DNA of 64,000 nt from Raillietiella orientalis (lineage: Eukaryota), in assembly GCA_036172245.1 (NCBI GenBank), contig JAYWIR010000035.1:992001-1056000 (forward strand), in the 5' to 3' direction. Below, piece by piece: positions 12,201 through 63,482 of this stretch. Each line of letters opens with the position of its first letter. Position 1 is the first letter of the stretch. The position numbers and the translations under genes are program-made. The notes below the pieces were generated by a model that had not been told where the DNA came from, did not search any database, and saw nothing but the letters and a program-made list of their open reading frames with translations.

Positions 12201-15200
12201 TAACTTACTTACAAAATTCTTATTTTAAAAACATTCGAAAAAAAAAAACAGTATTTTGTTTTACATATTGCTCAATGTTACACATGGAAAAGCATCGATG
12301 TGAGCCCCAAAGGAGGTATCGTGACGAGTGACCCAAAGGTCTCTTTCATGACATCAAGTAAGGAATTAATACGAGCTTCGCTGCACTCTCAGGATGCTCC
12401 AAGCACATTAGCAAGAATTTTTTGAAAACATCGGATAAAGTCTTCATAAATCTACGGTCACGGCTTCCAGAATAAGCAAACGAAAATGATTCCAAACTGC
12501 ATGCAACACCCAAAGTTATACCTTCCCCAAATGGTAAATACTGCTAGCGCATCACCTCCCTCCTGAAAGTTCTGACCCGTTATTTATCAAATTCTTAATC
12601 AGGATGAGAGCTTGAGTTTGAATGCAAAATATAAGCGATGGGCTCCTCATTTTGGCCCAAGGTATTCCTGCTTTATGCTCCTCTTTTAAAAGACAGCGAA
12701 TACAAGTACGAACTCACACTTGCAAAACAAAATAAAGATTCATTTTTTCAACGAGAAAAATTGAAGGGAAAAACACATACTTACAAAAACAATGATAAGA
12801 GACCCAATTTTACCATACGTATCGTTGCCACATATAATGGACATTCTGGTGCGAATATACTATCAAGTCATTATGTTTAAACGAATAAAAAGTGCACAAG
12901 ACAATGTCTTTTAAAAGTGGTAAGTTTAGAAATAACTTGCCAGAGAGCTGCTTCGCAGCTGCTTAGCAAGTGGTCCCTGGCCCAGAAATGGCTGCATACC
13001 TTTAAGTGTCTCCTCTTATGATGAAGCTGGAGTTGTAGGACTCTCAGAGATAATTTCTGATTCCATTCATCCGATACGTAATCAGGGCTTGTGAAGCAGA
13101 AAAAAAAAAAAAAAAAATCGAGACGTTGGGCCTCAGCAATAGAAGTGGACATCAGGCACGAAATCAAACGTTTCTGGATCTTTGAGCATTTGTTCCTGGG
13201 CCATCGGAAACTTTAGCTTTCAAATGCACAGTTGCGATGACAGATGGATTGCGTTTGTCAAACGCAATCCATCTGAGGATTTATAGCCGTTTTTTTTTTG
13301 TTTTTTTTTTCCCCTCCCGAATTTCAAGTAGGATTCCCTCATCAATGTGCACACTCACAACGAGCTCAAAGTTGGTAAGCTTAAGAATATTCGGATGTTT
13401 CAATAACCAGAAAACACGTACTTGGGAAACGAATGCACTCATCTGATTTCAAGTGAAATGGTTACGGTACACAGTTTTTGAAGCGGCGGATACTCGCATG
13501 CATCTGCTAAGGTGGAAGATTCGCGCTGCAAGATTGGAGATGTTGGAAACATTTCAAAAATTCCATAATCTTTGGCGAAAACCAAAAATTTCCGAATGAC
13601 GATCACTTAAAATGCCGAAATCTTGACAAGGATCGAACGTGATGAGAATCGTAAATGTATACGTTGCATGGCATAAATGGGAAGTAAGAAAACGCATTTC
13701 CATCATCACTCTTTATGCTCTGATAACTTTTCGCTACGAAGACAATCCAGTTAGTAAAAGCAAACACTGTCGCGAAAACTGCATCAATAACTCACAAGGA
13801 AATTTCTCCGTCACTACCTAGCAGAATTGCAAATAAAGGCATACAGTAAAAGTACACTCAAAATCATAATGGTATATTTTTATGTATTACGATTTTAATG
13901 CCCGCAAGAATCCAAAATTCTTTCCAACGAATTTTCTGCAAATGCAAGGCTTAAAGTCTAATGTCATTTTTAATGGTTATAATAAATTAATTATCCATTA
14001 AGTAACTGTAAGAAGATTTCACATTAATTTCTATATTCTAAAATTCGGTTCCAATCTCTAAACGGAAGTATTCAGCATATGTCGAAAAACATATTTACAA
14101 AAACAGTGGATTTACAAAATGGAAGTGACTCATTCATTCAAAAGTTATCAGATGCCAACACCCGAAGTCCTAAAGTGTATATACGTGGTAACGTAGTGTA
14201 TTCGTTCTGAAGCCACAAGTCAAATGCTTTCTAATTAGAAGCGTTGCTTCCCCTCCTCCCCCAAAATATGAAGAATTATTTGGAACTGTGGCATGAACTC
14301 AATATCCAAGAAGAATAGGTGTTTTGTCTTTATCCAAACTTTCTTGAATATTAGAGATTCCGAAATTGCTTCAATTCACCATCTCATTCTTGAAAGTGAG
14401 ACGAATGCATTCTGGCAAATGCGACTCTGAAAATTTCCCATTCGAAGCACGAAACTGCCGACAAGAACAAAGTTGTGTCCCACTTCAATCAAATGAGGAA
14501 TTGACGATCTTTCCAGAGGGCTGCACCAAGTGGCCCGAAAAGCTCGATAATAATGAGAAAATGTTAACTTAAAATCTGCTCTTACGGAAATCGATACGAC
14601 CGGCTACAGTAGCACCTTATACGATAATATCATTAATTGCTTCAGCAACCTTAATTTACGCAATCATGTGAAATTAAGTTGCTTGCAATAGCAGACAGAC
14701 ATGTCTAAGGATCTCGTTACGAAAATGGGTGAGCAAAGAAGTACATGCAAAGAAAAGTTTGGGCCCGGAAGATAATAATGATGCAAACACTTTGAAAACA
14801 GTAATAATCCACATGAACCAATTGGTGATTGATAAAGAATGAAAAAAAAGAAAGTCATTCTATAGTTGTTAACTTTTCTGCTGATAGGATATTAAGCAAA
14901 TGAATAAGCATGCACGGCAAGGACGTGCATTTCTGCCAATTTTTTTCTCTTTGCAAAGACAGGTAAAAGACACACTGTCGCGAAGAACTCTATCTAATTC
15001 AATCAATATGAGCATAAATCACATTAAATTAAATAAGGTAATTAAAAAGACACCACAATAAGATTAGGCCTTAGATTCAAAATATTTTTCATTCAGAGAA
15101 TTCTCGCTTACTTGCACACTTGTTCGTTATTCCTTTTCCTCTTTTTATCTTCACTGAAAACCAGTTAACGAGCATACATATCTATACACCTCTTACCCCA

Positions 15201-29900: not shown

Positions 29901-32900
29901 TCCTACAGCAGCACATGCTGACATAATTCAGCTGAATGTGTTTCCATGTTTAAATATAGGTGTAACTGTCAAGATAAATCCAATTTGCAATAGTGATATT
30001 TTAAAGTATCATCTACACCTGAAAGTAATTTAACAACAGTTTTTCTATTAGTCTAAAGAATATCGATCAATTGCAGAAATACTCAGGTAAATTGGCCATG
30101 AGCCCCATTGTCCATAAGAGGTACTCGGAATTTCAGTTTAATCCATTATGTAAAGATCGGAGAATTTGAAAGTATACTGAGATGAATGGAGTCAGCATAT
30201 CTATTACATCATGATCTCAACACTAGAATCCTAAAAACTCAGTGATTATTGAAAGTGTAAAAGTGTTTCTTTTGAAATGTGAATGTGTTGAAATCAGTAA
30301 ATATGTTTTTACTTTTGAAAAGCATTATTTATGCGAAAGAGCTCAATAAAATTCAATTCTTCACATTTTTCTCTTGTTATTTGCATTTTTTGCCATATGT
30401 AAGAATAGAGTAAACTAACATGAGCACCTGTGTGGGCTTATCAAAAGATTCAAATTTTGTTCAAATTTTCAGGAGGACTTGGTTTATCTGTATTTGATGC
30501 TTGTTTGGTTGGAGAGGAAATTGCTTATGGATGTACTGGTATATTGACAGCTGTATTAGCAAATGAATTAGGTGTAAGTATATTCTCAAAGTAAAAGGAT
30601 GAAAAATTATAGCAAAGTAGAGCATTTATGTATGATCAGTCAGTATCAAATACAACTGTCGATGAAATAACATCTTATAAATTTGAGAATGCAGCTTAGA
30701 ATGTATTGGAATGTAAATCCTAAAGTTTGAAATGAAATGTTATATGAAATTTGTAAAGTCAATTCGTAAAATAATTATGAACTCTACTGTGTTATTGTTT
30801 GTAGTGTGTGTTTCATGGCTGCAAATAATACGATGTAACAAAACCATTGTATGCTCTAAACACCTAAAAATACTTTTTCATGACATATAGGAAAATTGAT
30901 AACTATGTAATAAATAAGTTGCAGCTGAAATCCATTTTGTATTATTTGCGCCAGAAACTTTCAAAACCAATTCATGTAACCAGTAATTATTCTGGACATA
31001 ATGAATTTGCTCATCTTTATGAGAAAAACTCATAGGTCTAAGTCATGAGGTTTGAACCTTTGAATAAAAAAGTGCATGTTCTTTTCATGTTTCTTAATAA
31101 AAAACTAGCAATTAGGAAAGGCCCATTTTACCTATTAATGAATGTACTGAAATAATATGCTAATGAATAGCATACTATTTCAAAATACATACTTTCTAAT
31201 TATCGGTAAGGTTCTAGAACAATTTAGTTCTAAAGCTGTCCCATTTAGAACTTTATTTGTGGTTTATTTAAAAGTTCTGAAGTTTCTTTATGTGGTTTGA
31301 TTCTTCAGTCCTTGAATTTAATTGTTGGTTAGATGGCACCTGTACACATTGGAGGCAATGAACAACAAAAAAAGAAATATTTTACTCGTATGGTTGAAGA
31401 ACCATTAGTGTGCGTAAGTTATGTATGAATCTTATGTTTTATCTTCTGTGCAAGTCTTATTGTGTTAGTGAACCAGATACAGGCTCAGATGTAGCAGGAA
31501 TTAAAACCCATGCTATAAAGAAAGGAGACCACTATATTTTAAATGGTCAGAAAATGTGGATAACTAATGGTGGTTTTGCCAACTGGTGAGAACAATGTAC
31601 ATTTGTTATATGTTATAACTCATTTAAACAGATATTAATTGTGCTCTACATTATTGTCATTTGGGTACATTTGAATTTAAAACTTTTCTTCATTCTTCAG
31701 ACTTTATCAATTTTAGGAAAATATCTAAAAGGAAATCTATAAATTTTAAAAAGTCAATGAAATCAATGGAATACAAACTGGTTATTGCTGGAAAATCCGA
31801 TGTTACATAGTAGTGACATTGTTGAATGCTTGAAATTGTATTTCATTCAGATTGCACTCTCAGCAACGAATATTTGAGAAATGAAAATAGAGCAATAGTT
31901 GTAGGGAAATAAAGTAATTTCAGTTTGCAATGCCAAAAGCGTCTATTTTTGAATTTTATTGTTTGATAATTCTTGATTTCAATTATTTTTAGGCAAAATT
32001 CATCTTTGAAATGGTTTCTTAAACAAGTCGTATGTTTTATAGTGACAGATGTATGTTGTTTTTGATATTACATCATGATTTCAACACTGGAATGTGCCAT
32101 CTAACATGTAAATACTATAACCAAAACCAGAGTGACCTCAGGCACTCTGGTTTTGGTTTTATTACAGTGACATTCAGTTCTGTTTGCAATCGAGCTTTTT
32201 GATAACTAATTAAAACAAATTTGCTCTTAAATGTTAATCTTCAATTTAGTTCAGTGGGAGAAATTTCAGTCTTAAACAACACAGCGTAAGGTTTATGTTT
32301 TGAAAGTAAACCTGCACTGATGAATGATTACTTGTCAATATTTTGAGATGCAGATCAAAGTGAAAACGAAAAGGAAAGACTATGAAATTGTATAACGTCA
32401 GAAAATAAAAAGAGTATAAAAAATTTATATTTAAAATAAAAGATATTTAAATATAAAAAGGTATTTAAATCATTTTTTCCCGTCTTTATTTTTATCAAAA
32501 ATGATATAACATTTTTGATGTAAATAAAGAAGCTTATTTATATTTCATATATCGGTGTTTCAAAGTATAAGAAATCACCAGTATCCTAAGCTGAGACTGA
32601 TCTGAAAACTTCCATATGGTACGGAACTTATTTTCTGAACAGCACTAAAAGCAACTGAAATTAAACAAAGGCAGAACACTGCAAATAAGGAAACCAAAGC
32701 ATGCTAATAATTAACCAGTTGATAGTCTAAAAGTAATGTGTTGTGAGAACAAGTAGAATGTTCATAAGAAGTGCCGTTAGCATTTGAGTGTTAAAAAGCC
32801 AGATCTACTTGGAAACTGTAGAACCAAGTGCTTCTAAGTTACCCTAATGAATACGTGTTTAGTGAAACGCTCATACTAACGGGAATTAAAAAATGCAACA

Positions 32901-38300: not shown

Positions 38301-41300
38301 TAATAAACTCATGTAATTTTCATAGCTTCAATCAACCTAAATAAGTCAGCTCTTCTAACTTCTGTATCATTCAAAGCATTCAAAATAATTTCAAGACATC
38401 ACATAAACTTACTGAACAGAAACTTATTGGTGAGCAAAATTACCTTCCACATTTTAAGAAACAAATTTTCACCCATTTGTTGATCATTCAACAACTAAAC
38501 TTAGTGATTATTTGAATATTTATTTCTTATAAATCATAATTGCACACTTGGATTCTTGAAATTCAATAATAAATACTTTTCAATTTATGTTTTCTAAGAT
38601 AGCATACAATTCAACAAAAACATAATAGGACTAATCGTAAGAACTATTACTATTTATTTGAAAATGTTCCAATTTGATTCCGAAAACAATGTTGAATGCT
38701 GGGAATTTAATGAAACTTGAAAGTCTGTATTTATTCAAAAATCTGTATTTATAGCTTACAATGAATAAATTTTCAGCTAACTCTAAACCAATAATTGTTG
38801 AACAGCACACGTTTATAAGATACCCTGCAGGCTATCATTAGCCTGCAGGGTGTCTTGTAAATGTACCTTGTATACATACTGCACATGTATATATATATTA
38901 TCACATAAGTATGAACAAAATCATCATTATCAACAAAAAGAAATTTCATTATCGAGTACAATGAAACCAACAAATTCTGCCATAAATCAATTCCATTATG
39001 AACCAATTTTTTTTTTACGAGTGATCTTTTTTAATGACAATTAGTCACCTTGATTATAGAAATACAGATTTATTTATAAAAGTAATTTTCTGACAGAAAC
39101 ATGCATTTTTAACAGAAGCATTTAATTCAGTGAAGTAAACTGCCTGAAATGAGATTTCACAGTACTTGTTGCACAAGTCCCCAAATCCAGTCTAACTTGA
39201 GAAAACAAGCCCATATTTTCATAGGAGACATCTATGATTTACCCATGAGAATTTTTTGGAATGTAACAAAAGGCAGATACCTTGTATAAACATGTTCGTA
39301 GTAATTCTGAAATGCACCCCAAACACTCCATCACTTTCTTTTCTCTTGCATAATGAAATGCTAGTATAGTTCACAAAATGTCTCAAAGAACATGATAAAT
39401 GCTCATTTGGCATATATCTTTTTGTTCATGTTTACCCAAACCCTGACTTACGTTTCCGAGATCCAAAGATACAGTGAATACCTAAATGCTCATCTGCATT
39501 ACAGACAAAGAGAAGACCTACATAGAAATTACTGAGAAATACACTATCAAATAAGATAGGTCTGAATCAGCTGAAAATAACGTTGCCTCAAAATATTATT
39601 TATTCATAAAACAAAATTCGATGTACACATGTACTTGACGATATGTGTAAGATAGAATTATCTACCTTAAATAAAAACTTATGTAGTCCTTAGAATGATT
39701 TCAAATCATCGAATTTGCAATTTTTTTGTCTTGTAACATTTACATCAATTGTTTCTGTTTCTCCCTCATTTCATTCTTCACCTTGCATATAAGAGAATGC
39801 AACGATAGCAAAACTGCATGGAAAAAGCATATGTACCCTTGAAAAACAATTCAAAACAAGACAAGAGAAGTGAGATTACCATGTGAAGTATAAGCCCATC
39901 TGTGGTCTGCACCACAGTAAAAACATCTATATGCTCCTTTTGAAATTGCTTAGTAGAGCACTACACATTTATATAAATTACGAATAGCACATGTTAATAA
40001 ACAGAACCACTAAGACTAAAATTTGAAAATAGATCATTTAAATGCACAGGACTGCAGGGTGAAAATGGCACTAAAAGTGGCTGCAGAACACTAAAGCAGC
40101 TTTGTATTTTTTTTTTCTAATGTAATAACATTCTATATTTGACCATTGAAACTCTAAATTAAAAATATTAATGTTCTCATCACACAAATGCATATTTGCA
40201 AAAGCAGCACATCAAATGATTGAAAGATAAATTTCACAATTTCATACAATTGATACAATTTTTGATGGATCTTTGTCAGATAAAACTTAATTATGTAGCA
40301 CTGGTGCACTGTCAGATTTTTCATTACAATTCACCACAGTTTAAAAATGAGTCACTCAAGACAAGAATTCATTTATCAAAATGCAAGACAAGCATATTCC
40401 TTATAACATCGTCAAATATAAGATTTTGAAGATTTTCCAAATCGGAAGTTACAATTCGCAGATGATTTAATTTAGGACAGAGAATTTAAAATAAACCATG
40501 AAATTTTAGCAATCTAACACAGAAACCGCAAAGATTTGCGCCATTCCCGAAATACATATGCAAGGGGCAAACATTCTTAAACAAATGACTGCTTGTTTTG
40601 CCTGAGTATTTTGTTACAAAAATGGATTAATTTCAGGCAAGCAAAAATGAAAATCTTGCATGTACTCAGTCTGTAAGAGCTACTGATTATAGAAACTAAT
40701 TTGTTGCCACATAAACTACTATCATATGATTATTATGCAAATGAGCTTCATTCAATGTTAATCACTTTCAGTGATCTTACTTTATGTGAAATCAAATTAT
40801 TAATCGTGTTTGATATCTTTCTTTTTTAACTTGTACTACATCATGAAGAACACTTGGGAATGAAAATGAAAATACAAAAACTAGAAAAATGATTATGCAA
40901 TGCTTCAATTTGTTAAATTTTGAAACATCTGAATGTACTATTTACGTTTGCATTTTAAGTAATTAAAGAAATAAAAATAACAAATCATGATGATTCAACA
41001 ATTTATTCCTTAAACCATCTTTTATATTATAAAATGTTATCCAAACTAATGTTTTAAAATACATGTACATACATAAACATACTTGCTGAGAAAACCTTCA
41101 ACAAATGAATTTTTGATAATTAGTTTGATAATTATTAATACTGCACATGCATGTGTCTTATTAGTAACTGTTGAAGAATCTTCTTTTCAGTTAGCAATAA
41201 ATAATAATAATTGCAAGTGAACTTACACAGTCAATTCGAGTCAGTTGCTCAGCAATGGTAGAAGATGGGAAATGAAGAAAACTCTCAGTGTGATCCATCA

Positions 41301-47300: not shown

Positions 47301-49918
47301 TGTGAGTTCTGTTTAATCTTTGTCTTCCTAATCCATATACCGATCTTTCATATTCTATCTTTCTATGTGCATAGATATCCAGTTCATCCTATGACAAAAT
47401 TTTCGAATTCCCTTCTCCTGATTGGAACGCAACAGGCCTCATTTTTCTAGAAGACGATTCCCTATTACGTCCACATTAAATATATTGAAATTTAAGAAAG
47501 AAACATTGCCATGATCTTTAGAGTTAGCATTGTAATTACTTATCTGAAAATGTTATTGTAAACATGCACCCCTCCTCTAGATTTTATTTTCCCAACTGCG
47601 AGCAAACAAGATGATCTCGAAAACAGCGACAACAAAATTATAAGGTATAAGCAATGATAACGAAAGATTATGTTTCAAGTTTGCAGCTCTGAAGTATAGA
47701 TCATTTATTTCCCACAAAATCCAAATAATTCATCAGTTTCCTAAATAAATATGAAATTCAAGAAAGCTTCAATCTTTACTTTTGTACTTCCAGCTCATGC
47801 ACAAATGAAATGTAGAGATCCTATGGCATCTAAGAAAGCTGAAATCATTAATGAGTTTCCAAGATTACTCACAATCAAAAAACATGCCCGCTTCTTTTTA
47901 AAATCATGTTTGCTCTGCAGCAAACACAACATAGAAGTAAATTTCAGAAAAAGAATTGTATAAATTTAGCAAAATATAGATTCAAAGAAAGAATGAATTT
48001 CACAGGGCAAGCAATAATTGTTCGTCCCTGCACTGCACGGTCGTGTTTAAGCACTTGTGGCAAGTCGCTCGTAGTGGCTCCTTCTCATCCTATATATTAT
48101 CTAGTGGTATTTCACTTACGCAAGGTAATCACATCTGAGGGAGATCTCGCTTTCTAGCAATCTGCTCTTGGTGCCAGGGATCGTTCTAATTGCCTCCTGT
48201 TCATGACACACCTTTCTTATTGATATGATCAATGTGATGAAAAGAGCCAGTTATTTCATGATCTTGGAATGTTAAGGAGTGGCACTATCCCCTCAGTATA
48301 GGAGTCTCAAAATTTCTACTGATGTTGATTTTCTGCTCATGACTGACTCTTGATGACCCTCTTCACAAAGTTCCCATCTTGTTCTAGTGTTGGGCAAGCC
48401 AGGCTTCTACTTTGTAGCAGATTCCTCGGTTTGCCAAGCGGAAGAGAGAGATATCACATCGAGAGGTATTCCAAGATTCAACGAAGATAAAGAACTGCAG
48501 TAGAACAGGACAACAATCATTCTGGACAACATGCAGGAGTTCGATTTCTGTAAGTCTCCTACAGGAACTAGATGAAGTCTTTCCATCCTGAGTCATGTTC
48601 TTACTCTTCCTATTTTTAGACGACTTCAAATATTCATAAGTTAACTTGGACTAGTGATTTCTTTGGTCTGGCTACGCTTTTTGCACAGAACCCTCTAATC
48701 CTTTGCAAAAAGTGTACCCGGATTTCACTGAGGGATTTATGGATTGGTATCATATATCTGGATACATCTAGTGCTTACCTTCCAGCGCCCTGAAATTGAG
48801 ACTTCTGCAAATTCTCTGCTGCAGTCTACGGTATGAGGACAAAATACATAAGCATATTTCTCCTCCCAAATCTACCAGCTTCTAAGGATGATATTGATCA
48901 TGCAGCTGGATACGAACACTTGCTTCTCCTTCTAGATAGGATAGATGATCTTTCACTGGCGTATTCTTCTGCTCATGGCAGTCATCAACTCACTTGGAAT
49001 TTACCCCTCACTCTCTGAGAGTGTTCCCTGTGTGCAGCGTAACTCCATTCCACCAATTCTTGGTTTTCAAGAGCAAGTTTCAGCTGTTCTGGATCTGTGC
49101 TTCTGCGTCCAATGGGTTTGTCATTCCGCAGCCTTCTTTTTTTGGTCAGAATACGAATTTTAGTACTTTAGCTTAATCTTCGTCTTTTACTCCATCGCAA
49201 ACCTTCGTTTCTGCTATTAAGTGAAAGACAAAGATTAAGCTTCGTTTCTATAGCCATTAGTGTAATCAGGTGAGTAAGTCAAAATAGTCGGCCAGTTGAT
49301 AACAATTCCCAATACCGTTTAAATTTTATAGCATCATCACAAAAGAAAGCTCAGTCATTTTTCTGCATTTCTTATGAGTATTCAGTTAAAAGCTGCATAG
49401 GCACAAAAATCAATTTAATGTATGGGTGGTTTCTGAGATTAGAGCTGGGAGCATACAAATTGGCGTTGCAATATTTTGTTGTTATATTTAGCTAAGATAA
49501 ATGTATCTCTTCATTCTTGTTTGTCATCCATTTTAACAAGGTCGTGTGAGTGTACCACGAAGTTAGTAAATTCGACTGCAATAAAGGAATGTAACTCTGA
49601 TCCCGAATTTTGTTTTCCTTTTTTTCAGTGTTATTTCATTTCCCTCACAATGTCATAGACGTTCTGGTCTTATTTGAAATCTGAACTAATGAAATTCTTT
49701 GTGCTTTAAAACTATGATGTGGAAGGTTGTCCTTACTGCAAAGGAAGTCTGTATCCGATGGGAGGCTTTGTTTCGGAAGAAGATATTGCTCTGGTATCAA
49801 TTCCCGCATGATGTCGTAATTATTCGCAGCCATATCCATTCGAGTTGCCGGGATCGTGGGGTCTGCGTAGAGATTTCACACAAAAATATCTGTAGGTCGA
49901 AAAATTAGTAGTTTGAAA

Positions 49919-53336: not shown

Positions 53337-56159
53337 TCACATGTTTATTAATATAAACTAAATCAAATTCCAAAAATTCCAAAATCGACTCAAATACTAT
53401 TTAAGATAACTGATGGAATAATACCCATGCTGAGCGGGATACTTAGTTACAGTCGTCATGATTCCATTCTTATGGACTGATTCAATCCTTCCTAGGTATT
53501 GAATTTCGTAAACTGTAATCGGGCTCAAATTATTCTCCTTCCTGAAATTCGTTGAGACACTTTTTTAAACCGAAATTATGACCACTATGGTTTTTATCAT
53601 AGGAATCCTACCCACATATATATTTTTAGATAAAACATTCTATTGTCTTTCGTTTGTAAAAAGTCTGCAAATCTGACCGTTTAGCTATTCATGATGCAGA
53701 GTAAAAATTTCCCCATTTCTCAAGGATAGAAGTTTTTTTTCCATAGAACACTTTGTTATGAGAATACAGAACAACATGAGAAATTTATGATTAATTCACG
53801 CTCCTTTGCTCTTTTGACTTCCATCTAAAGCACTATTGGAGTATAGAGAAAAGCGATAGAAGTATTTTCTAACGGAAATAGAGAATAGAAATATATTTTT
53901 ATTTCCTCAAAACATTAAATAGAACAATAAATTAGCATATTAAAAATATATTTCGTGATCAAATCCAAGAAAATAACTGCAAAAGATCTAGTACAAAGGT
54001 AAAAAAATTGTGAAACATAACTTCAAGACATACTTTTTAAGAGGAAAGTTCAGTTGAGAGTAGTTCAGTGGATCATAAAAAGAAACCACATGGGAGAATA
54101 ATAGTCAAGAAGAATCGATTAAATGAATAAGATGGGAAATTTCCTTTTTAAGGACATTCTGAACCAGAGATCTAAGAAACAGAGATGCTAGGATTATTAA
54201 ATTCATACCTGGAGTGGGGAGAAAATGCCTTCCTAAAAGTATTAATAATACTTAATTTTTAAAAAGCATTCCATGTGAAGGGTAAGCATATTGCAAAACA
54301 ATCCATAATTTCGGGATAAGCATAACAGGTAACTGGAATGAATCGGATAATTAGTAGGTCTTTTTTAAAATCTAAGAGTGAAAGGCAGAGCTATTTTAAG
54401 TTTATTCTGAATATTTGCCAATATTCACCGAGTTTGTTACAAATAGTGAAGAATGAAACTTGGTACGCAAAGCCTTTGGTGCTTGTTCTAAGAAATCAAG
54501 AGCAACTATGAAATAACCATAGTCTCTTCTGACAAGGAAATATTTGGCTATGTTCGATAATGCTCTCTTGGGTGAAACTCAGTTGTGTGAAAGAACAAAC
54601 GTAATCCATATTTTTGGGAGGAAACAGAGATGACATACGTCGACTTACGTACAACAAATCTTTTGATCAGTTTTTATAAAAAAATAAGCTTCTTATAGAA
54701 TTATCAAGATTAAAGAGCGAAAATTAGTCTGTTCGAATATATTAGACACTGCCCTCGATATCTATGAAAGGCACCATCTTGCATTTTTTGATTTTTTGAA
54801 ACAAATGCAGAAAAAGATGAAAGCTGATTATAAAAGTTATTGTAGTTCACTTCTTTTTATTAACAAGAAAGAACAAAGATTCCTGACTCGGAAAAGGGCT
54901 AAAAAGAACGTTCCAATGTTTTAGGAAATCTGCTTTGAAGTTGAAGTAATGCAAAGCTGGCCATTTTGAGTTTCAAATAAATGCAATGTAGAATAAATGG
55001 GAACAATCTGTGAGCACCTTCTCATGAAACTAATTCAAGACAACTCATATTTCTTTTTATATTCACGGTTCTTTCGCTTTTCCTTTTTCACAGAATAATT
55101 TAAAAATGTTAATAAGTCTTGGATCGATATTTAGGCCTGTGGGATATCAGGTAGTTAGAAATGACTACTTTGTAACAATATCATTTTCGCTTCTTTTCTT
55201 GTATTATTATTGCTCATATTATATTTGATCTCAATCATATGCCATGCATCGTCGATTACCATCCTAACTTCGTCACAGCAAAGCATCCTGACATGGGAGA
55301 AAGTCTATTAGGTTTTGACTTAATTTTAAAATGAATTTTTATTCCGCCAGTAATTTATTAACAGTATATGAAAACAGACTCTTTGTGACAGCCTTTTTTA
55401 AGGTTGTAGAAGGCTTTGTTTGGTGCCGAAACAAATGTATACACTTCTATTTTCAGTAAAAGGGGAAACCATTTTCAGTAAATCCAAATCTAGAGTCTGG
55501 GACGAAATTGTCTAAAAGGCCTAATTGTTTCAATCGGGAAGTTCATTTTATCACAATATCGTAGTCCTGATTATATTACAGTACTTTTGTGGGTGAGGTT
55601 TTTGCGATAAACACAAAAAAAAACATCAAGGTAGCTTAAACATCTGAAAGGAACGAGACGTAGCATAACAAACTAATTCTATCAGGAAGGCAAAAACATC
55701 TTGAACTCCTTGAATGTTTAAACCACTTATCAATTTTCTTCTTTTGGTGTTTTTAATCTGAAGCACTGGGAGCGTGGATCTATTAAGTCTCCACAGCGCT
55801 GAACTCGTGGCCAGGATATAAGCTGGTATAGACTGGTAGATGCTCCACTTTAGAACTCTACACATGGGCTATGGTCTTCTTGCATTGGGATTCCCTGTGC
55901 AGCCAGAGCCCTGTACCACGTAACAGCGACAAATGCGTCCCCTAATTGATCGAAGGGCGAGGTAGTCGAGTTCATGCCGCACCAGTTGCTGGAATATTGT
56001 ACACTTCGTGTGAGGTAGAGGTGCGAAGCCATGCACTGTCACATGCGGACAACACCCTTCCGTCGAAGTGAAAAAAAAAAAAAAAAACACCCTTGGTTAA
56101 GAGGTTTCCTTCTATGCCGGTTCTGCTAAGCACGGCTTCAGTAGTTTTAATATTTGCTA

Positions 56160-56269
56160 CGCCTCCAGCACTCTGACGCCAACGAAGGAAACGAAACCCT
56201 CTATAAAGAGGCCGTCCACTTGGTCACTTCCATGATCCAGAAAGCTGGAAAATGTCAAAGTTCGCACTT
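56160..56269 (+). pseudogene. Left part of a decayed piggyBac-like transposase C-terminus (target of the Tx1-like insertions)
   Basis: Frame-shifted reading RQRRKRNPL*RGRPLGHF / SMIQKAGK / VKVRT, continuous with the right flank when the retroelements are removed. Confidence 0.4.
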
Positions 56270-56280
56270 TGACATTTTCC
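56247..56280. repeat. Perfect 15-bp hairpin at the 5' junction of retroelement copy A
   Basis: GGAAAATGTCAAAGT-tcgc-ACTTTGACATTTTCC. Confidence 0.95.
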
Positions 56281-56282
56281 GC

Positions 56283-57639
56283 AGGGAATTCGAGAAGCTG
56301 CAAAGGAAAACACTGTGGGGCCACTATCGCCCAAGAGTACGTTTAAAACCCCTGTGTCGTCCCAGGGAGGAAGGAGGCTCCGGGATGAAGTCGCTTGCAC
56401 ATTCCATGGAAATCATGGATACGCGACACATCCTGGATATCGCCACCCATTGGGATGATTGGCCATATGCGGCGCATAGGGCCTACGCGTTGTTGCTTAA
56501 CAACTCGAAAGGCCTGATGACTGCGCTGCTAGGCCGAGCAGGGGAATGGATCAACATCGACCCGACCTGGAGGAGAAAGCAACGGCTGGTGCGTAAGCAC
56601 AAGATGAAAATCGTGCCGAGAAGCAGGGAACTCTGGCAGGAGGAATCCATCCTGGTGATCCCCTGGATGCTTCCGGTCCCTCCGGACACGCGAAGCTGGA
56701 TCTACCAGCGGCCCAGAGTTACCCTGCAACGAATTCAGGAGTGGCGTCGAGGAGGCTACCTACATCACTCGCGTGTACTCCGGTACATAGAGATGATGCT
56801 AGGGAGGTTTACCCACCAGACCCGCGAGGTGTGGATCAACCACAACGACTTCGCGTGGTCCAGAGTAACCAGAATGAACCTCCGAAGATTGATCAAAGAA
56901 GAGGACCGCGACACCAGTGCCCTCCAAGAAGCCGCCGATCGCTACGGGAGTGACCGGATCAACCTGTTGGCGATCGGCACGACGCTCTGGAGGAGTGACC
57001 TTCCGCCGGACACCCAGGACAACCTCCTGATGTTCTACCATGGAGGAATCCTGACGGGGTCCAGACTACAGCACTTCACGAGAAGAAGGGAAGACAGAGA
57101 CTGCACGGCGTGTGGTGACACCGATACAAGACTCCACATCTTGACGTGTCCCACACTGCTTCACGACTGGCTGATCCTGAAAAGGATCATCGGACGGACC
57201 ACCAGCTCCGTAATGGAGATCCTCGCCGGGATGTTTCAGGGAGATGGTAATGTTCCCTATTACAATCCCATGGTGAGGACGACCATCGCCCTCTTCATCA
57301 CCGCCATACTTGTGCGGTGGTGGAAGATGAGGAAAGCCAGGAGAGCCGCACCTCCGATGGAGATCCTCCAAGGACTCCTGAAGAAGGAAATCGGCATCAG
57401 GAACTGAGGAAGAATCCAAGCCTGGACGTACAGATTCATCCTGAAGAGGATCGAGGACGACGCCCGGGAACAAACATCTTGACCCCCACCCTGATAGCAG
57501 AACTCGAGTGAATCCAAGGACTTCAAAGTGAACAGTGGTAAACATTGCGTGAATGAGACTGTGTGCATGAAAATTGTAGTGTGAATGTTATTTTTATAGA
57601 AAATAAATTTACCCCACCCCTTGTGGGACTTGGGGAAAA
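56283..57639 (+). mobile_element. 5'-truncated L1/Tx1-type non-LTR retrotransposon, copy A (ORF2 C-terminal third plus 3' UTR)
   Basis: Collinear with 61997-63351 (EKLQRKTLWG...CTACGDTDTRLHILTC). AATAAA at 57602; flanked by TCAAAGTTCGCACTT at 56255 and 57640. Confidence 0.93.
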
Positions 57640-57890
57640 TCAAAGTTCGCACTTTGACAGGAAGTGTGGGGCATGCAAAAAGTAGTAGACGACAGAATCT
57701 GCGAAATTATAAATTCAAACTTGTATTTAAGGACTTTAAGGACCGCAGCCTTTAAGGACTTGGTCAAAAAGGAGAAGGGCACGAGCAGTATCATAGGCGA
57801 GGAAGGCGACTGAGCCGTGATTATTGCTAGTTGAAAACTTTTCCCAATACCCCGCCAAGGCAGTGAGTAACATCACTGCCGCGGCAATTT

Positions 57891-59674
57891 TTGCGTGCCC
57901 CGAGAGGGCAAGTGCTGAGTAAAAAGACAGTGAGTGCGCAACCAAGGACGTCCCACAGCGACTGCAGCAGCAGAAGCAGCGAAAGGGAGTCCAAGGTGGA
58001 GGACTCGCGATCCTCCCTGGCGGCGGTGCAGCAGCACCCCCCCGTCAAGATGCAAGAGCAGCGGTGGATGGGAGCCACGGAGAAGCCACAGCCCATGGAG
58101 GTGGGGCAATCGTGTGTTTCTTCCGGAGCGACTCCGATGGAAGCGGTGGAGACGACGATGGCGGTGGCGGTGGCGGCGGCGGCGCCCCCAGAGACGGCGG
58201 TCGCCGGAGCGACGGGAGGGCCCGTAGGCCCCACCGTTGCTAGTGACGCGACGCCATCTTGCGCGGTGGCTGCGACCGTGGGGCGGCCACCGGCAGCGTC
58301 GGCAGCTTTTTCCTATGCGGCGGTGGCAGCTGGGACGGCGACCACCCAGCCGCAGAGGAAATTCGGGAAGCCAGAGTCTGGGCCGATACGAGACATCGAC
58401 GAGCCCATAATTAAACTAGGACCGAACGTGAAGACGGTCACGTTCAAGACTAAACTTATAAAAATGAACAACATCAAAGAGGTATACCTGGCTCTCTACA
58501 AACAGCAAGTGGACTTTGACCGCCTGCAGGCGATCGTCCCGAACACCTCGGGATTCACAGTGTACACCGACTGTGAAGAAATAAGGGAATCCCTAATTGA
58601 AAAAGGGATCAACATTTAGGGCAGGTGTCGGCGAAATGCCGTACACCACCCTATTCCTGAGCGGACTCGGGCCGTTCGTCACCCAAAGGGCTGTGTGGAG
58701 GAAACTGTCGCAGTACGGCGAGGTACTGGACAGCAACTTCCACAATATATCGGGAAAGATCTTTTCGGGGGAGGCGACGGTGAAGATGAAGTTGAAGGAG
58801 GAAGCCCAGGTTCCTGGGATGATCTACTTCGACGGGGACGACATGGGAGTCTCTGTTCGATATAGGGCGCAGCCAGTTTTCTGCAACGGCTGCAAAACCT
58901 TTGGACATCGGCAGCGAGTCTGCCCGAGGGCCAAGTGCTTCCGTTGTGGGAAGCAGGGCCACCAGGTGCGGGACTGCAGCATGCCGGAGGTGTGTTCGTT
59001 CTGCAAGTCTCCGGGGCATGCAAAGTGGTGCTGCCCGGAGTTTACAGAACGATGCGGGGTCAATCCCCAGTTAGGACACGGGTGTTGGAGGAGGTAATCA
59101 AACCTCAAAGGGCGATGAAGCAGAGGAAGGCGAAGGAGGCAGCCCCAGTTTCGGCGGACGGCTTCACCACGGTGGGGAGGGGCAGCAAGAGGAGGATGCT
59201 CGTGAAGGAGCAAGAATCCTCTGCTGCGCAGGTCGAGGAGCAGGTTGGCGAGCAGGTTGGCGAGCAGGTTGGCGAGAAGGCCGAAGTAGAGCAGGTTGGC
59301 GAGAAGCAGGGTGTGCCGGAAGGCGAGGTGATGGAAATCACCGAAACCGTTCCGACATCGAAGGAGGCGGTGCAGCTCACCGAGGAGGTGGTGAAGCTTG
59401 CGGAAGAAGTGCAGGGGGAGAAAAGTGAGGTGCAGCAGGAGCAACTCCTGACTCGCATCAATGAAACCCAACAGGGAATCAACACCCTGGTGATCCAAGA
59501 AGAGAGTGAAAAGCTAGAGAACCAGCTTTTCGAAGTGAAAGCGGCGTACTGCGCGAAGGTCTCCCTCGAGACATTGGCACGGAGAGCGATGCCGGGAGTG
59601 AGAAGCCAGCTTCCTCGACGGTGAGACGCGAAAGGTCTCCCCGTCAGAAGAAGCTGAGGAAAGCGAAGCATTAG
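57891..59674 (+). pseudogene. Retrotransposon ORF1 (Tx1/ZCCHC3-like nucleic-acid-binding protein), broken by three apparent frameshifts
   Basis: Segments 57891-58619 (first ATG 58050), 58597-59097 (TLFLSGL..LSQYGEV RRM-like; CNGCKTFGHRQRVC, CFRCGKQGHQVRDC, CSFCKSPGHAKWCC), ~59060-59545 (E-rich) and ~59546-59674 (…RRERSPRQKKLRKAKH*). Confidence 0.85.
59238..59300 (+). repeat. 12-bp coding tandem repeat (GAGCAGGTTGGC x3 plus one further copy; EQVG) in ORF1
   Basis: Units at 59238, 59250, 59262 and 59289. Confidence 0.9.
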
Positions 59675-59689
59675 ACTTCGAACCCTTTC

Positions 59690-62600
59690 ATGTCCTCGTC
59701 GCTAGCGAACGCCAGGAGGCTAAACATCGCCTCCTGGAACATCAATGGATTGACAGACCAAGGCAAAAGGAAGACAATCTTGCGGACCATCGCAAGACAA
59801 GACGTAGTGTGCCTACAGGAAACCCACCGTCTCGGACAACAAAACGCCCAGGAGATGGAACGCCGGTTCAACGGGCAACTGTTTGTCAGCGAGGGACAAA
59901 GGAAGACCATGGGTGTGGCGATCCTCATCAAGAACGAGCTCGTCCACACCCTTCTGGAAACCTTCTGTCCACTCGCTGGAAGGATAATCGGCGTGCGACT
60001 GTCCTGGTCCGACAACGTTCACCTGTTTCTGCTGAACGTGTACGGACCGCACAAGAACAAGCATCGGTGCGCGGAGGCTCTCCACGAGGCACTCCGCCAA
60101 CGTGTAGCACCGAAGGACATGGTCATCGTCGCAGGTGACCTGAATATTCAAGACCACATCAAGTACCGTCAAGACATCAGAGGAAGAGAGGCGTATCGAC
60201 GGTTGTCCGACGACTTCGGACTCGTGTGGCGAACAGCCAGCCACAAACCGATCGATCACGTCCTTCATAGCGTGGAGATCGACAACCGAATCCAGGGTTT
60301 TTGCGACATTCCTCACCTGCTGTCCGATCACCTTTTGGTTGGATTCTCCCTCCGCACGGAAAATCCTCGACGGCGAAAGGCCACTAGGGCGGCGCTCATC
60401 TGCATGCCCGCCTGGTTTGAGATGCTTCCCTGTCACCAGGAGGTGATCGAGGCGATTCTGCGAGACACCACCATCCGCAGAGTCGCCGACTGGGACAGGT
60501 TGAAGCATCGGATCCACCTGTTCTGCAACATGCAGTACTTTTGCAAGCGACTGAGGCAAGAAGCGTACCAGGAGCTCAACATCCAAGACCGCTCCCTCTT
60601 TAAGTACTACGATCAGTACGAGAGTCGGTACGTCTTCAATGATGTGAAAGGGGAGGTCGGCGTGCTGGAAAAAAAGAATCTGGCGACAGACATCTTCTGC
60701 ATCCAGTACGGCGTCCAGAAACGGCAGACGTCGGAAGACATCATGGGAGCATTCCATCAGCACTACGAAGAACACTTCCGACGGCAACACACGTGCAAGT
60801 CTATGCAGAGAACTTTCCTGAGCTACCTCGAGAAGAGGACAAGAGATCTCCAGAGAGACAAACTGGAGAAGTATTTCTCCGAAGATGAGGTGAAAACGGC
60901 TTTTGGGCAACTGCGGAAGGACGTGGCAGCGGGCCCTGATAGTGTACCCATCACGCACTATCAGCGGTACCTGCACGCCTACCTGCGCTTGTTCCATCAG
61001 CTCACCCTCTGCATCCGTGAAGAAGGAAGACTACCCGAGTCCTTCTACGAGAGTCGGATGAGATTGTTGCCGAAAGGAGGCGACCTCACGCAGGTCGCCC
61101 AATGGAGGCCAATCTCCGTCCTAAACTCCGATGCCAAGTGGTTGGCGAAGATCTGGTCCAACCGCTTAGGCAAGGTCATGCCGAAGCTCATCTCTCCGGT
61201 CCAAACATGTGCGATGCCCGGACGCCACATGTTGGACAATGTCAAGTGTGCCCAAGCCACCGTGGGACTCAGCCGGCACGTCGGCAAGGACCTGGTGCTG
61301 GTGTTCACTGACATGGAGAAGGCTTTCGACTCCATCGACCATGGGATGCTGCTGAAGATTCTGGACAAGCTGGGCCTTCCGGAATACTTCAGCACCTTCG
61401 TGAGATTGGTACTCGAGAACCAGTACTGCCGAATCAAGATCAACGGCGAAGACACGACAGCAATCAGGATGGAACGAGGAGTACGCCAGGGCGACTCGCT
61501 AAGTCCTATGCTGTTCGTTATTTACATGGAGGCGCTGTCCTCGTACATCGAGAAGAGTGGACGCCTCCAAGGCATCCAGATCGACGACCAGCGGCTCACC
61601 CACCTGGCGTACGCTGATGACCTTCTCTTCTTCATCAAAGGAGAACGAAATCAGCGTGCGTTCCTGGAAGTGGTGACGCTCATGGAAGAAGGACTAGGAT
61701 TAAAGATCAATGCAAGGAAAAGCCAACTTTTGCCCGTCGGAATCCTGGGCCTCTCCGTCCTCACGGGGAGAGGATTCCGAACGGTGGACACAGCCAAATA
61801 CCTGGGAGTCTACATTGGCGACGGCTCTGAGTCGAAGCTTTTGTGGGATGAAACCCTGGGGAAAACGGCGAAAGAGGCAGCGAAGTACACCCGACAGGAC
61901 CTTGGAATGAAACGCAAGGCCAACCTCTGGAATGGAGTCCTCCTTCCTAAGGTGCTCTTCGGGGCGGCCTTTGCGAGAGTGAAAAGGGACACCTCGAGGG
62001 AGCTGGAAAAACTGCAAAGGAAGACATTATGGGGCAAATATCGCCCAAGAGTTCGTTTGAAACCCCTTTGTCGTCCCAAAGAAGAAGGTGGAACCGGGAT
62101 GAAGTCGCTTGCACACTCCATGGCAATCATGGACACGCGACACATCCTGGATATCGCCGAACAATGGGACGACTGGCCGTACGCGGCGCATAGGGCCTAC
62201 GCGTTGTTGCTTAACAACTCGAAAGGTCTGATGACTGCGCTGCTAGGCCGAGTAGGGGAGTGGATGACCATCGACCCGACCTGGAGGAGGAAACAACTGC
62301 TGGTACGAAAGTACAAGATCAAGATCGTGCCAAGAAGCAGGGAACTCTGGCAACAGGAGTCCATCCTCGTGATCCTTTCGATGCTTCCGGTCCCGGACGA
62401 TACCGGAGGATGGATCTACCGGCGGCACAGAGTTACCTTGCAACGAATCCAGGAATGGAGAAAAGGAGGCCACCTACATCATGTTCGTATACTTCGGTAT
62501 ATCGAGAAGATGCTAGGTAGGTTCACCCACCGGATCCGCGAAGTGTGGATAAACCACGATGACTTTGCGTGGTCCAGGGTAACCAAAACAAACCTCCGAA

Positions 62601-63037
62601 GAATGATAAAGGATCAAGATGAAGACACCAGTACCCTCCAGGAAGCGGTCAATCGACACGGAAGCAACAGGATCAACCTGTTGACGATCGGCACGACCCT
62701 ATGGAGGAGTGACCTTCCGCCGGACAGCCAGGACAACCTCCTGATGTTTTATCACGGAGGAATCCTGAGCGGGTCCAGACTAAAGTACTTCACAAGAAGA
62801 AGAGGAGACGAAGACTGCCCAGCATGTGGAGACACGGATACCAGACTTCACATCCTGACGTGTCCCACATTGCTCCACGACTGGCTGATCCTTGAACGGA
62901 TCATTAGAATCACCACCAGTTCCACGATGGAGATCCTAGCCGGGATGTTTCAGGGAGATGGTAATGTTCCCTGTTACAATCCCATGGTGAGGACGACCAT
63001 TGCCCTCTTCATCACTGCCATTCTGGTGCGGTGGTGA
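59690..63037 (+). CDS. Retrotransposon ORF2: apurinic-like endonuclease, reverse transcriptase and C-terminal Cys finger (1115 aa; probably 1172 aa to TAA 63208 without the premature TGA)
   Basis: APE motifs SWNINGL, CLQETH, NVYGP, AGDLN, IDHVL, SDH. RT motifs GPDS, WRPISVLNSDAK, DMEKAFDSIDH, GVRQGDSLSP, YADD, KYLG. Cys finger CPAC-x8-H-x3-C. Confidence 0.96.
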   Translation: MSSSLANARRLNIASWNINGLTDQGKRKTILRTIARQDVVCLQETHRLGQQNAQEMERRFNGQLFVSEGQRKTMGVAILIKNELVHTLLETFCPLAGRIIGVRLSWSDNVHLFLLNVYGPHKNKHRCAEALHEALRQRVAPKDMVIVAGDLNIQDHIKYRQDIRGREAYRRLSDDFGLVWRTASHKPIDHVLHSVEIDNRIQGFCDIPHLLSDHLLVGFSLRTENPRRRKATRAALICMPAWFEMLPCHQEVIEAILRDTTIRRVADWDRLKHRIHLFCNMQYFCKRLRQEAYQELNIQDRSLFKYYDQYESRYVFNDVKGEVGVLEKKNLATDIFCIQYGVQKRQTSEDIMGAFHQHYEEHFRRQHTCKSMQRTFLSYLEKRTRDLQRDKLEKYFSEDEVKTAFGQLRKDVAAGPDSVPITHYQRYLHAYLRLFHQLTLCIREEGRLPESFYESRMRLLPKGGDLTQVAQWRPISVLNSDAKWLAKIWSNRLGKVMPKLISPVQTCAMPGRHMLDNVKCAQATVGLSRHVGKDLVLVFTDMEKAFDSIDHGMLLKILDKLGLPEYFSTFVRLVLENQYCRIKINGEDTTAIRMERGVRQGDSLSPMLFVIYMEALSSYIEKSGRLQGIQIDDQRLTHLAYADDLLFFIKGERNQRAFLEVVTLMEEGLGLKINARKSQLLPVGILGLSVLTGRGFRTVDTAKYLGVYIGDGSESKLLWDETLGKTAKEAAKYTRQDLGMKRKANLWNGVLLPKVLFGAAFARVKRDTSRELEKLQRKTLWGKYRPRVRLKPLCRPKEEGGTGMKSLAHSMAIMDTRHILDIAEQWDDWPYAAHRAYALLLNNSKGLMTALLGRVGEWMTIDPTWRRKQLLVRKYKIKIVPRSRELWQQESILVILSMLPVPDDTGGWIYRRHRVTLQRIQEWRKGGHLHHVRILRYIEKMLGRFTHRIREVWINHDDFAWSRVTKTNLRRMIKDQDEDTSTLQEAVNRHGSNRINLLTIGTTLWRSDLPPDSQDNLLMFYHGGILSGSRLKYFTRRRGDEDCPACGDTDTRLHILTCPTLLHDWLILERIIRITTSSTMEILAGMFQGDGNVPCYNPMVRTTIALFITAILVRW

Positions 63038-63351
63038 AAGATGAGGAAAGCCAGGAGAGCCGCACCTCCGATGGAGATCCTGCAAGGACTCCTGAAGAAG
63101 GAAATCGGCATAAGAAATTGTGGAAGACGAGCAGCCTGGACGTACAGACTCATCCTTAAGAGGATTGAAGACCACGCCCGGGACCAAACACCCTCATACC
63201 CACCCTAAGTGCAGAACTTCAGTGAATCCCAAGGACTTCCAGTGAATACAGAACAAGTAGTGTATTGTATGAATGTGACTGTAGTGTGAATGATATTAAA
63301 AAAAAAAAAATGAAAATAAATTTATCCCACCCCTTGTGGGACTTGGGAAAA

Positions 63352-63482
63352 TCAAAGTTCGCACTTGCAGCGTGGTTTTGGAACAAGAAGCCAAGAGGGA
63401 TTTCATCTCAGCCTTCCTCTCGACTACATTTATTTTCATCCATGCTTCCCACACTATCACATCCCGAACCCTTCCCGCTAAG
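63352..63482 (+). pseudogene. Right part of a decayed piggyBac-like transposase Cys-rich C-terminus
   Basis: KVRTCSV..., NKKPR..., DYIYFHPCFPHYH.P resemble the RxCxVC...PCFxxYH terminal motif; several frameshifts are needed. Confidence 0.4.

Follow-up and report, generated by a model that had tools for sequence, protein, structure and literature searches.

Two LINE copies, designated A and B, lie head-to-tail at one position of the 64-kb window (the whole stretch of DNA analysed here), and the 5' junction of copy A carries 11 nt of filler that repeat, in inverted orientation, the target DNA just upstream of it. Snap-back of the nicked top-strand 3' end, i.e., its fold-back and templated extension, appears to be the best and simplest origin of this filler, and we consider it the probable one on the basis of one locus and two junctions. 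With the fold-back scar of copy A, a type of scar known from elsewhere turns up in a new setting. Since both end joining and R2-protein insertions have already been reported to leave scars of this type, the locus serves as an illustration and does not reveal a new mechanism.

Of all the steps of LINE integration, the priming of second-strand synthesis is understood least. A natural element with a self-priming target end would leave readable scars and would give a simple test system; at the locus described here, one scar is clear (11 nt) and the other is short (5 nt). That the LINE itself carries out hairpin priming, and that B was inserted before A, are both plausible but thinly supported.

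Layout of the locus and identity of the elements

The site (T)CAAAGTTCGCACTT, of 14-15 nt, is present three times and flanks the two LINE copies. The letters and coordinates that the original prediction gave for the motif copies, the extra bases and the right flank were all found at their places, and the locus can be described as follows:

56247-56254 (+), target DNA GGAAAATG just 5' of the duplicated site, template of the last 8 nt of the filler of copy A
56255-56269 (+), site copy 1, (T)CAAAGTTCGCACTT, the left target-site duplication, whose 3' end is the mini-hairpin AAGT-tcgc-ACTT
56270-56280 (+), filler TGACATTTTCC, exact reverse complement of 56247-56257 and right arm of a 15-bp hairpin
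56281-56282 (+), GC, located between the filler and the start of the A-to-B homology and outside both
56283-57639 (+), copy A, a 5'-truncated LINE with the C-terminal part of ORF2 and the 3' UTR, delimited by homology to B
57607-57640 (+), predicted 3' stem-loop of the RNA of copy A, including GGGGAAAAU
57640-57654 (+), site copy 2, between A and B, as read from the letters
57655-57659 (+), TGACA after site copy 2, reverse complement of TGTCA at 56253-56257
57660-57770 (+), 5'-most stretch of unit B, without a match in Rfam
57771-57909 (+), U4 snRNA-like sequence (Rfam, model positions 1-138, 79.2 bits)
57910-63351 (+), LINE body of copy B with the ORF1 region, ORF2 and the 3' UTR, delimited by domains and homology
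63320-63352 (+), predicted matching 3' stem-loop of the RNA of copy B, with the pairing kept
63352-63366 (+), site copy 3, the right target-site duplication, with the right flank GCAGCG directly after it

The 12-mer AAGTTCGCACTT occurs three times in the window (56258-56269, 57643-57654, and 63355-63366), as compared to a chance expectation of 0.35, and none of 100 shuffles reached three occurrences. Neither the motif beyond these three site copies nor a further copy of the element was found in the window.

As judged from their sequences, A and B are two members of one L1/Tx1-like LINE family encoding an APE endonuclease and a reverse transcriptase, the L1/Tx1-like label being one of similarity scores and not of placement in a tree of reference clades. 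The 1115-codon ORF2 of copy B (59690-63037) contains an APE-type endonuclease domain (Pfam Exo_endo_phos, 2.1e-18, aa 14-214) and a reverse transcriptase domain (RVT_1, 1.9e-33, aa 462-708). Its closest relative of solved structure is the human L1 ORF2p (186 bits, vs. 92 bits for R2), and its 69 database relatives include, as those bearing names, L1 and Tx1 proteins of 26-32% identity, while the best match is 26% identical. The ORF1 region of copy B is split over three frames and includes a part with zinc knuckles (58597-59097; Pfam zf-CCHC, 1.6e-5, in 58597-59094). Copy A is 5'-truncated: it begins at aa 770 of ORF2, and it has an open frame that spans 56271-57404. A TGA codon in B (63035-63037) corresponds to TGG in A (57321-57323) and makes the ORF2 of B 28 codons shorter. 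The locus combines a target-site duplication (the 14-15 nt site in three copies) with 5' truncation (copy A). In copy B, the DNA that separates the zinc-knuckle ORF from ORF2 contains, at 59214-59327 (+), seven overlapping copies of a 39-nt repeat, the spacing of which (12-15 nt) indicates a unit of roughly 12 nt (GAGCAGGTTGGC-like).

The homology between the two copies starts at 56283 and amounts to 83.8% nucleotide identity over 1381 columns, with 84.7% identity of the encoded proteins from ORF2 residue 770 onward. At this level of divergence A and B represent separate lineages and not a recent duplicate, which argues for two events at one nucleotide; the independent copies at an identical nucleotide of one sequence are accordingly these two, at one locus.

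Conservation between A and B is far higher in the last ~55 nt than in the remaining 3' UTR. The 3' stem-loops predicted there have GGG(G)AAAAU as their 3' strand, and the pairing is preserved in B despite a C-to-U change and a deletion of a G, although the folding energies are not exceptional (24/200 and 12/200 shuffles fold equally well). The stem-loop is likely a recognition element for the reverse transcriptase, as far as structure prediction can indicate. Since both copies are predicted to form this stem-loop, we take GGG(G)AAAAU, which lies within it, as element sequence and not as part of the duplication, which leaves a duplication of 14-15 nt. For the same reason, we dropped a duplication of 21-23 nt with a shared 2-nt deletion, which would favour the insertion of A first. 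The hexamer GGAAAA is present in the upstream target (56247-56252), at a distance of 2 nt from the site, and forms the end of the element as well (57634-57639 and 63346-63351); its frequency in the window is ~7.7e-4 per position. After insertion, the element end and the site recreate a target-like sequence.

The target lies in no recognised multicopy gene, as Rfam gave no match in the flanks of the locus, and a comparison of the left and right flanks revealed neither terminal inverted repeats nor coding frames that would name the target. The element 3' end followed by the motif, searched as a DNA pattern, had no match in prokaryote-genome contigs or in metagenome contigs, and the search for relatives of ORF2 in metagenome contigs gave 30 pattern matches, none of which was confirmed. 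The single viral-contig match of an 18-nt word from the 3' UTR is a chance one, which does not run on into the motif.

Filler at the 5' junction of copy A

The inverted-repeat search confirmed that 56247-56280 is a perfect 15-bp hairpin, as had been proposed: its arms (56247-56261 and 56266-56280) are complementary at all 15 positions and are separated by a 4-nt loop. As DNA, the 34-mer folds with -14.3 kcal/mol, and none of 200 shuffles folds equally well. The proposed mini-hairpin at the target end, AAGT-tcgc-ACTT, is likewise the minimum-energy fold of the 15-nt site, but its energy is only -1.1 kcal/mol. The probability that all 11 of 11 filler bases complement the upstream target by chance is ~4^-11, and a terminal fold-back of this sort is possible at only 3.7% of window positions. 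All three site copies contain the AAGT/ACTT seed; at the junction of copy A, this seed is followed by the inserted arm of 11 nt.

The right arm of the hairpin is its added part. The loop TCGC is asymmetric, and the left arm with the loop corresponds to the motif at the other two site copies; moreover, the third site copy goes straight into GCAGCG without a right arm. The inverted repeat spans the junction, one part of it being original and one inserted, with a short primer repeat beside the end, and the added arm continues the top strand of the upstream target. The overlap at the join of the filler and the cDNA may amount to 0-2 nt. The exact 5' end of copy A is uncertain by ~2 nt. The GCAG that follows the filler (56281-56284) recurs at the very start of the right flank (63367-63370); only its GC is in question here, because AG also opens the homology of A to B.

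We infer the following course of events. Staggered nicks would produce an upstream end with a ~15-nt 3' overhang, whose last four bases, ACTT, could pair with AAGT eight bases back. The folded end would then be extended by 11 nt on its own upstream DNA, 3 nt of it by gap filling (TGA) and 8 nt by strand displacement, and after unfolding it would be linked to the truncated cDNA, with another 0-2 nt (GC) added. Closure of a hairpin followed by its off-centre opening would be an alternative route to the same letters. At the junction of copy B, TGACA may have been generated by the same process with the left-most copy as a template. A route to the filler in which the cDNA serves as a primer was rejected as not simpler, since it requires the same extended top strand as a template.

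The original prediction interpreted these features as hairpin-assisted priming of second-strand synthesis. The fold-back of the upstream 3' end stands as the best reading, whereas the attribution of the priming to the LINE itself does not follow, since snap-back end joining by the host leaves an identical scar. The polymerase that synthesized the filler may be either the reverse transcriptase of the LINE or an enzyme of host end joining, e.g., Pol theta; the sequence fits either and cannot tell between them, because snap-back synthesis is described, in the available part of the source, for Pol theta and for reverse transcriptases of the non-LTR type alike (bioRxiv 10.1101/2022.03.14.484287). 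The coincidence of GGAAAA in the target and at the end of the element counts against the fold-back model, which does not explain it.

It is doubtful, and in our view improbable, that the LINE family is specific for a site ending in a self-complementary tetranucleotide and that the folded-back top strand routinely serves the family's own reverse transcriptase as the starting point of second-strand synthesis. If this were true, inverted target copies of variable length would be the regular 5'-junction signature of the family, and arrays would grow by repeated insertion, since the 3' stem of the element (GGGAAAAU) and the duplicated site rebuild a target-like sequence.

Junction of copy B, order of insertion and alternative origins

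The pentamer TGACA at the junction of copy B is identical to the first 5 nt of the filler of copy A and is the reverse complement of TGTCA beside the left site copy (56253-56257). At the middle site copy, the local complement is limited to TCA (57640-57642), so that only TGA of TGACA fits it. From the position of the TGTCA template it had been concluded that B was inserted first and that A later entered the left duplication of B. The template is indeed present only beside the left copy; nevertheless, only CA discriminates (1/16 by chance), while TGA fits either location. With B first, a template exists for each of the 16 filler bases; with A first, CA is untemplated or derives from the RNA of B, again with a chance of 1/16. 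The sequence therefore weakly suggests that B was first and A second, the support being thin because it comes down to the two nucleotides CA.

The first and second junctions share 20 nt, TCAAAGTTCGCACTTTGACA, which could equally be the target-site duplication of copy A, with the second nick 5 nt further on. Under a 20-nt duplication, the filler of copy A would be just TTTTCC, for which a hairpin of 7 bp (-5.0 kcal/mol) would act as the primer. Both the 14-15-nt and the 20-nt readings of the duplication retain the insertion of B first.

The start of the LINE sequence of copy B, previously placed at 57660, has to be moved: the first ~250 nt of unit B (57660-57909) are not LINE sequence, and what is found there instead is a copy of U4 snRNA preceded by a non-LINE stretch of ~111 nt. 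The near-full-length U4 sequence on the plus strand exceeds, with its 79.2 bits, the Rfam gathering score of 46, although its first ~6-15 nt match the model poorly. It sits in sense orientation between site copy 2 and the LINE body, with its 3' end toward the 5' side of the LINE. The snRNA does not start at the duplication, as ~111 nt separate it from TGACA. This stretch (57660-57770) shows no significant likeness to the LINE 3' UTR or to anything else in the window. A kinship of 57655-57790 with the LINE 3' UTR, suggested by the shared GGACTTGG..AAAA, was rejected as not significant (273/1000 and 665/1000 shuffles score equally).

Template switching is the likeliest origin of U4 and of the 5' stretch of unit B, the other being 5' transduction; the ~111 nt before U4 mean that a further jump or 5' transduction is needed. 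LINE or SINE sequences with a copy of an snRNA attached on their 5' side are described as known products of template switching in the available part of PMC4494074. The 5' region of B may be a template-switch chimera, the result of 5' transduction or the 5' UTR of the family. As U4 and the stretch preceding it stand between the LINE and the target, the 5' junction of B is not a plain LINE-to-target junction and is weaker as a second example of the fold-back scar.

The chimeric 5' end of B also opens the way to a different interpretation of the whole locus, in which the motif is part of the 3' end of the element RNA, e.g., as a read-through of a canonical target, in the manner in which R1 carries downstream 28S bases, and the array was built otherwise. 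In its variants, the duplication is not a real one, or serial end-to-end jumps (B RNA, U4, the RNA of the 5' stretch, and an A-type RNA) yielded a single cDNA, which was joined to the target once. If the motif was carried by the element RNA, the argument on the order of insertion falls. Such an origin is consistent with the identical GGAAAAT-CAAAGTTCGCACTT end of both elements, as compared to the left copy, which has two bases more (GGAAAATGTCAAAG...), with the much better conservation of the last ~55 nt, and with the U4 copy as a foreign RNA copied into unit B. Available parts of the literature indicate, in addition, that R1 insertions may include downstream 28S sequence of up to 14 nt (PMC2718515) and that end-to-end jumping by non-LTR reverse transcriptases is established (work cited in bioRxiv 10.1101/2022.03.14.484287). 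However, under a 15-nt duplication the two-base difference falls outside the duplicated part, the motif was found at no second locus in prokaryote-genome and metagenome contigs, and TGACA, which is both the start of the filler of A and the complement of TGTCA, would be a 1/1024 event if it were non-templated jump filler. We therefore regard this origin as unlikely. An even lower probability can be assigned to the palindrome, or the left motif, predating the insertions as a native palindromic site or as a relic of an older, very short copy. The empty site would then consist of the left flank, the hairpin and GCAGCG, and the duplication would be a tiny one of GC or GCAG. Other perfect palindromes that are not of low complexity do occur in the window, namely, at 13241-13275, 32119-32158, and 38822-38851, with stems of 13-16 bp that exceed the longest stem (12) in 30 block shuffles of the window; long palindromes are thus not unique to the junction, and a pre-existing one is not absurd. 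These three are located in AT-rich DNA, and none of them is beside recognisable LINE sequence. The left motif resembles the element 3' end at 21/23 nt, as a relic would, but upstream of 56247 there is no likeness to the element 3' UTR. In the case of a native palindrome, the 3' end of the element would have to mimic its left arm, and TGACA at the middle junction would be left unexplained. The agreement of the four bases after the filler (GCAG) with the start of the right flank would fit the tiny duplication; nonetheless, as AG opens the A-to-B homology, only GC counts, with 1/16 by chance.

The least probable of the origins considered, to which we give hardly any credence, is that the filler was added only after integration, when an intramolecular template switch occurred at the AAGT/ACTT quasi-palindrome in the course of replication, and is unrelated to retrotransposition. 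Quasi-palindrome correction is a known class of mutation, and the seed inverted repeat is available in all three site copies. Against this, the added bases are located exactly at the boundary between element and target at two 5' junctions, while the third site copy has no 5' junction and no added bases. Snap-back of the nicked top-strand end remains, in our opinion, the probable source of the filler.

Known systems and other sequences of the window

The comparisons below refer to what is described in the available parts of the cited sources. In the snap-back form of SD-MMEJ, a 3' end pairs with a few bases further back, forms a hairpin, is extended and unfolds, which gives a junction with an inverted repeat that is partly original and partly inserted; the primer repeats can be as short as a few bases (PMC2943611). 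The locus likewise shows an inverted repeat across the junction with an original and an inserted part. In contrast to SD-MMEJ, the end involved here would be the upstream end of a LINE integration intermediate with cDNA as its partner and not a chromosomal break under repair. Snap-back synthesis in vitro has been reported for Pol theta and for group II intron-like reverse transcriptases, and the authors tie this activity to features common with LINE reverse transcriptases (bioRxiv 10.1101/2022.03.14.484287).

Among insertions made by the R2 protein in human cells (PRINT), a class of 5' junctions has been named 'snap-back', for which the template is mostly cDNA and sometimes nearby rDNA, and in an 'extra template' class the copying of the template is sometimes followed by that of U6, before the 5' junction is established (PMC11371274, PMC11204384). 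The U4 sequence of unit B is in a position that matches that of U6 in PRINT. However, in PRINT the cDNA 3' end is taken as a primer, whereas the arm added at our locus continues the top strand of the upstream target; furthermore, PRINT involves the R2 protein acting on rDNA, and the present copies are natural ones of an APE-type LINE in an arthropod genome. Our literature search on LINE-1 second-strand synthesis with snap-back returned only the PRINT work (PMC11371274, PMC11204384), and a search on templated inverted filler at target-primed junctions returned none; neither of these results proves absence from print.

For extra nucleotides at the 5' ends of LINEs (zebrafish ZfL2, and human L1 in DT40 and HeLa cells), flanking genomic or LINE DNA has been deduced to be the template (PMC4760211, citing Kajikawa et al. 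2012). The same source describes that L1 yields a ~15-nt 3' overhang and a duplication of ~15 bp. The extra nucleotides at the 5' junctions of our locus, which appear to be templated from flanking DNA, and the ~15-nt overhang proposed here are similar in both respects. Tandems of R1 elements have a 14-bp duplication, and their 5' junctions contain extra or microhomologous bases (PMC5932611, PMC2718515); they resemble the present locus in the head-to-tail arrangement of elements with a copy of the target duplication between them. The size of the duplication (14-15 nt) is as in R1 (14 bp; PMC2718515) and in L1 (~15 bp; PMC4760211). Many elements of the Tx1 clade are target-specific (PMC4494074). 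Unlike in the target-specific R1 and Tx1 LINEs, the specificity of the family described here is deduced from two hits at one locus, which lies in no recognised multicopy gene.

Several other sequences of the window deserve a mention. A G+C-richer stretch at 55800-56087 (+), ~170 nt upstream of the insertion site, ends with a run of 18 A residues (56070-56087) and may be another retrocopy. The region 48857-49050 (-) gives a weak protein match to the part of ORF2 that follows the RT domain (33% over 55 aa, E 0.007), and is probably, to judge from this match, a remnant of another, distant LINE. An exon at 8472-8852 (-) indicates that the host is an arthropod: it encodes the HR1 (Rho-binding) repeat of a protein kinase N (PKN) homologue and is ~60% identical to hemipteran and other arthropod proteins.
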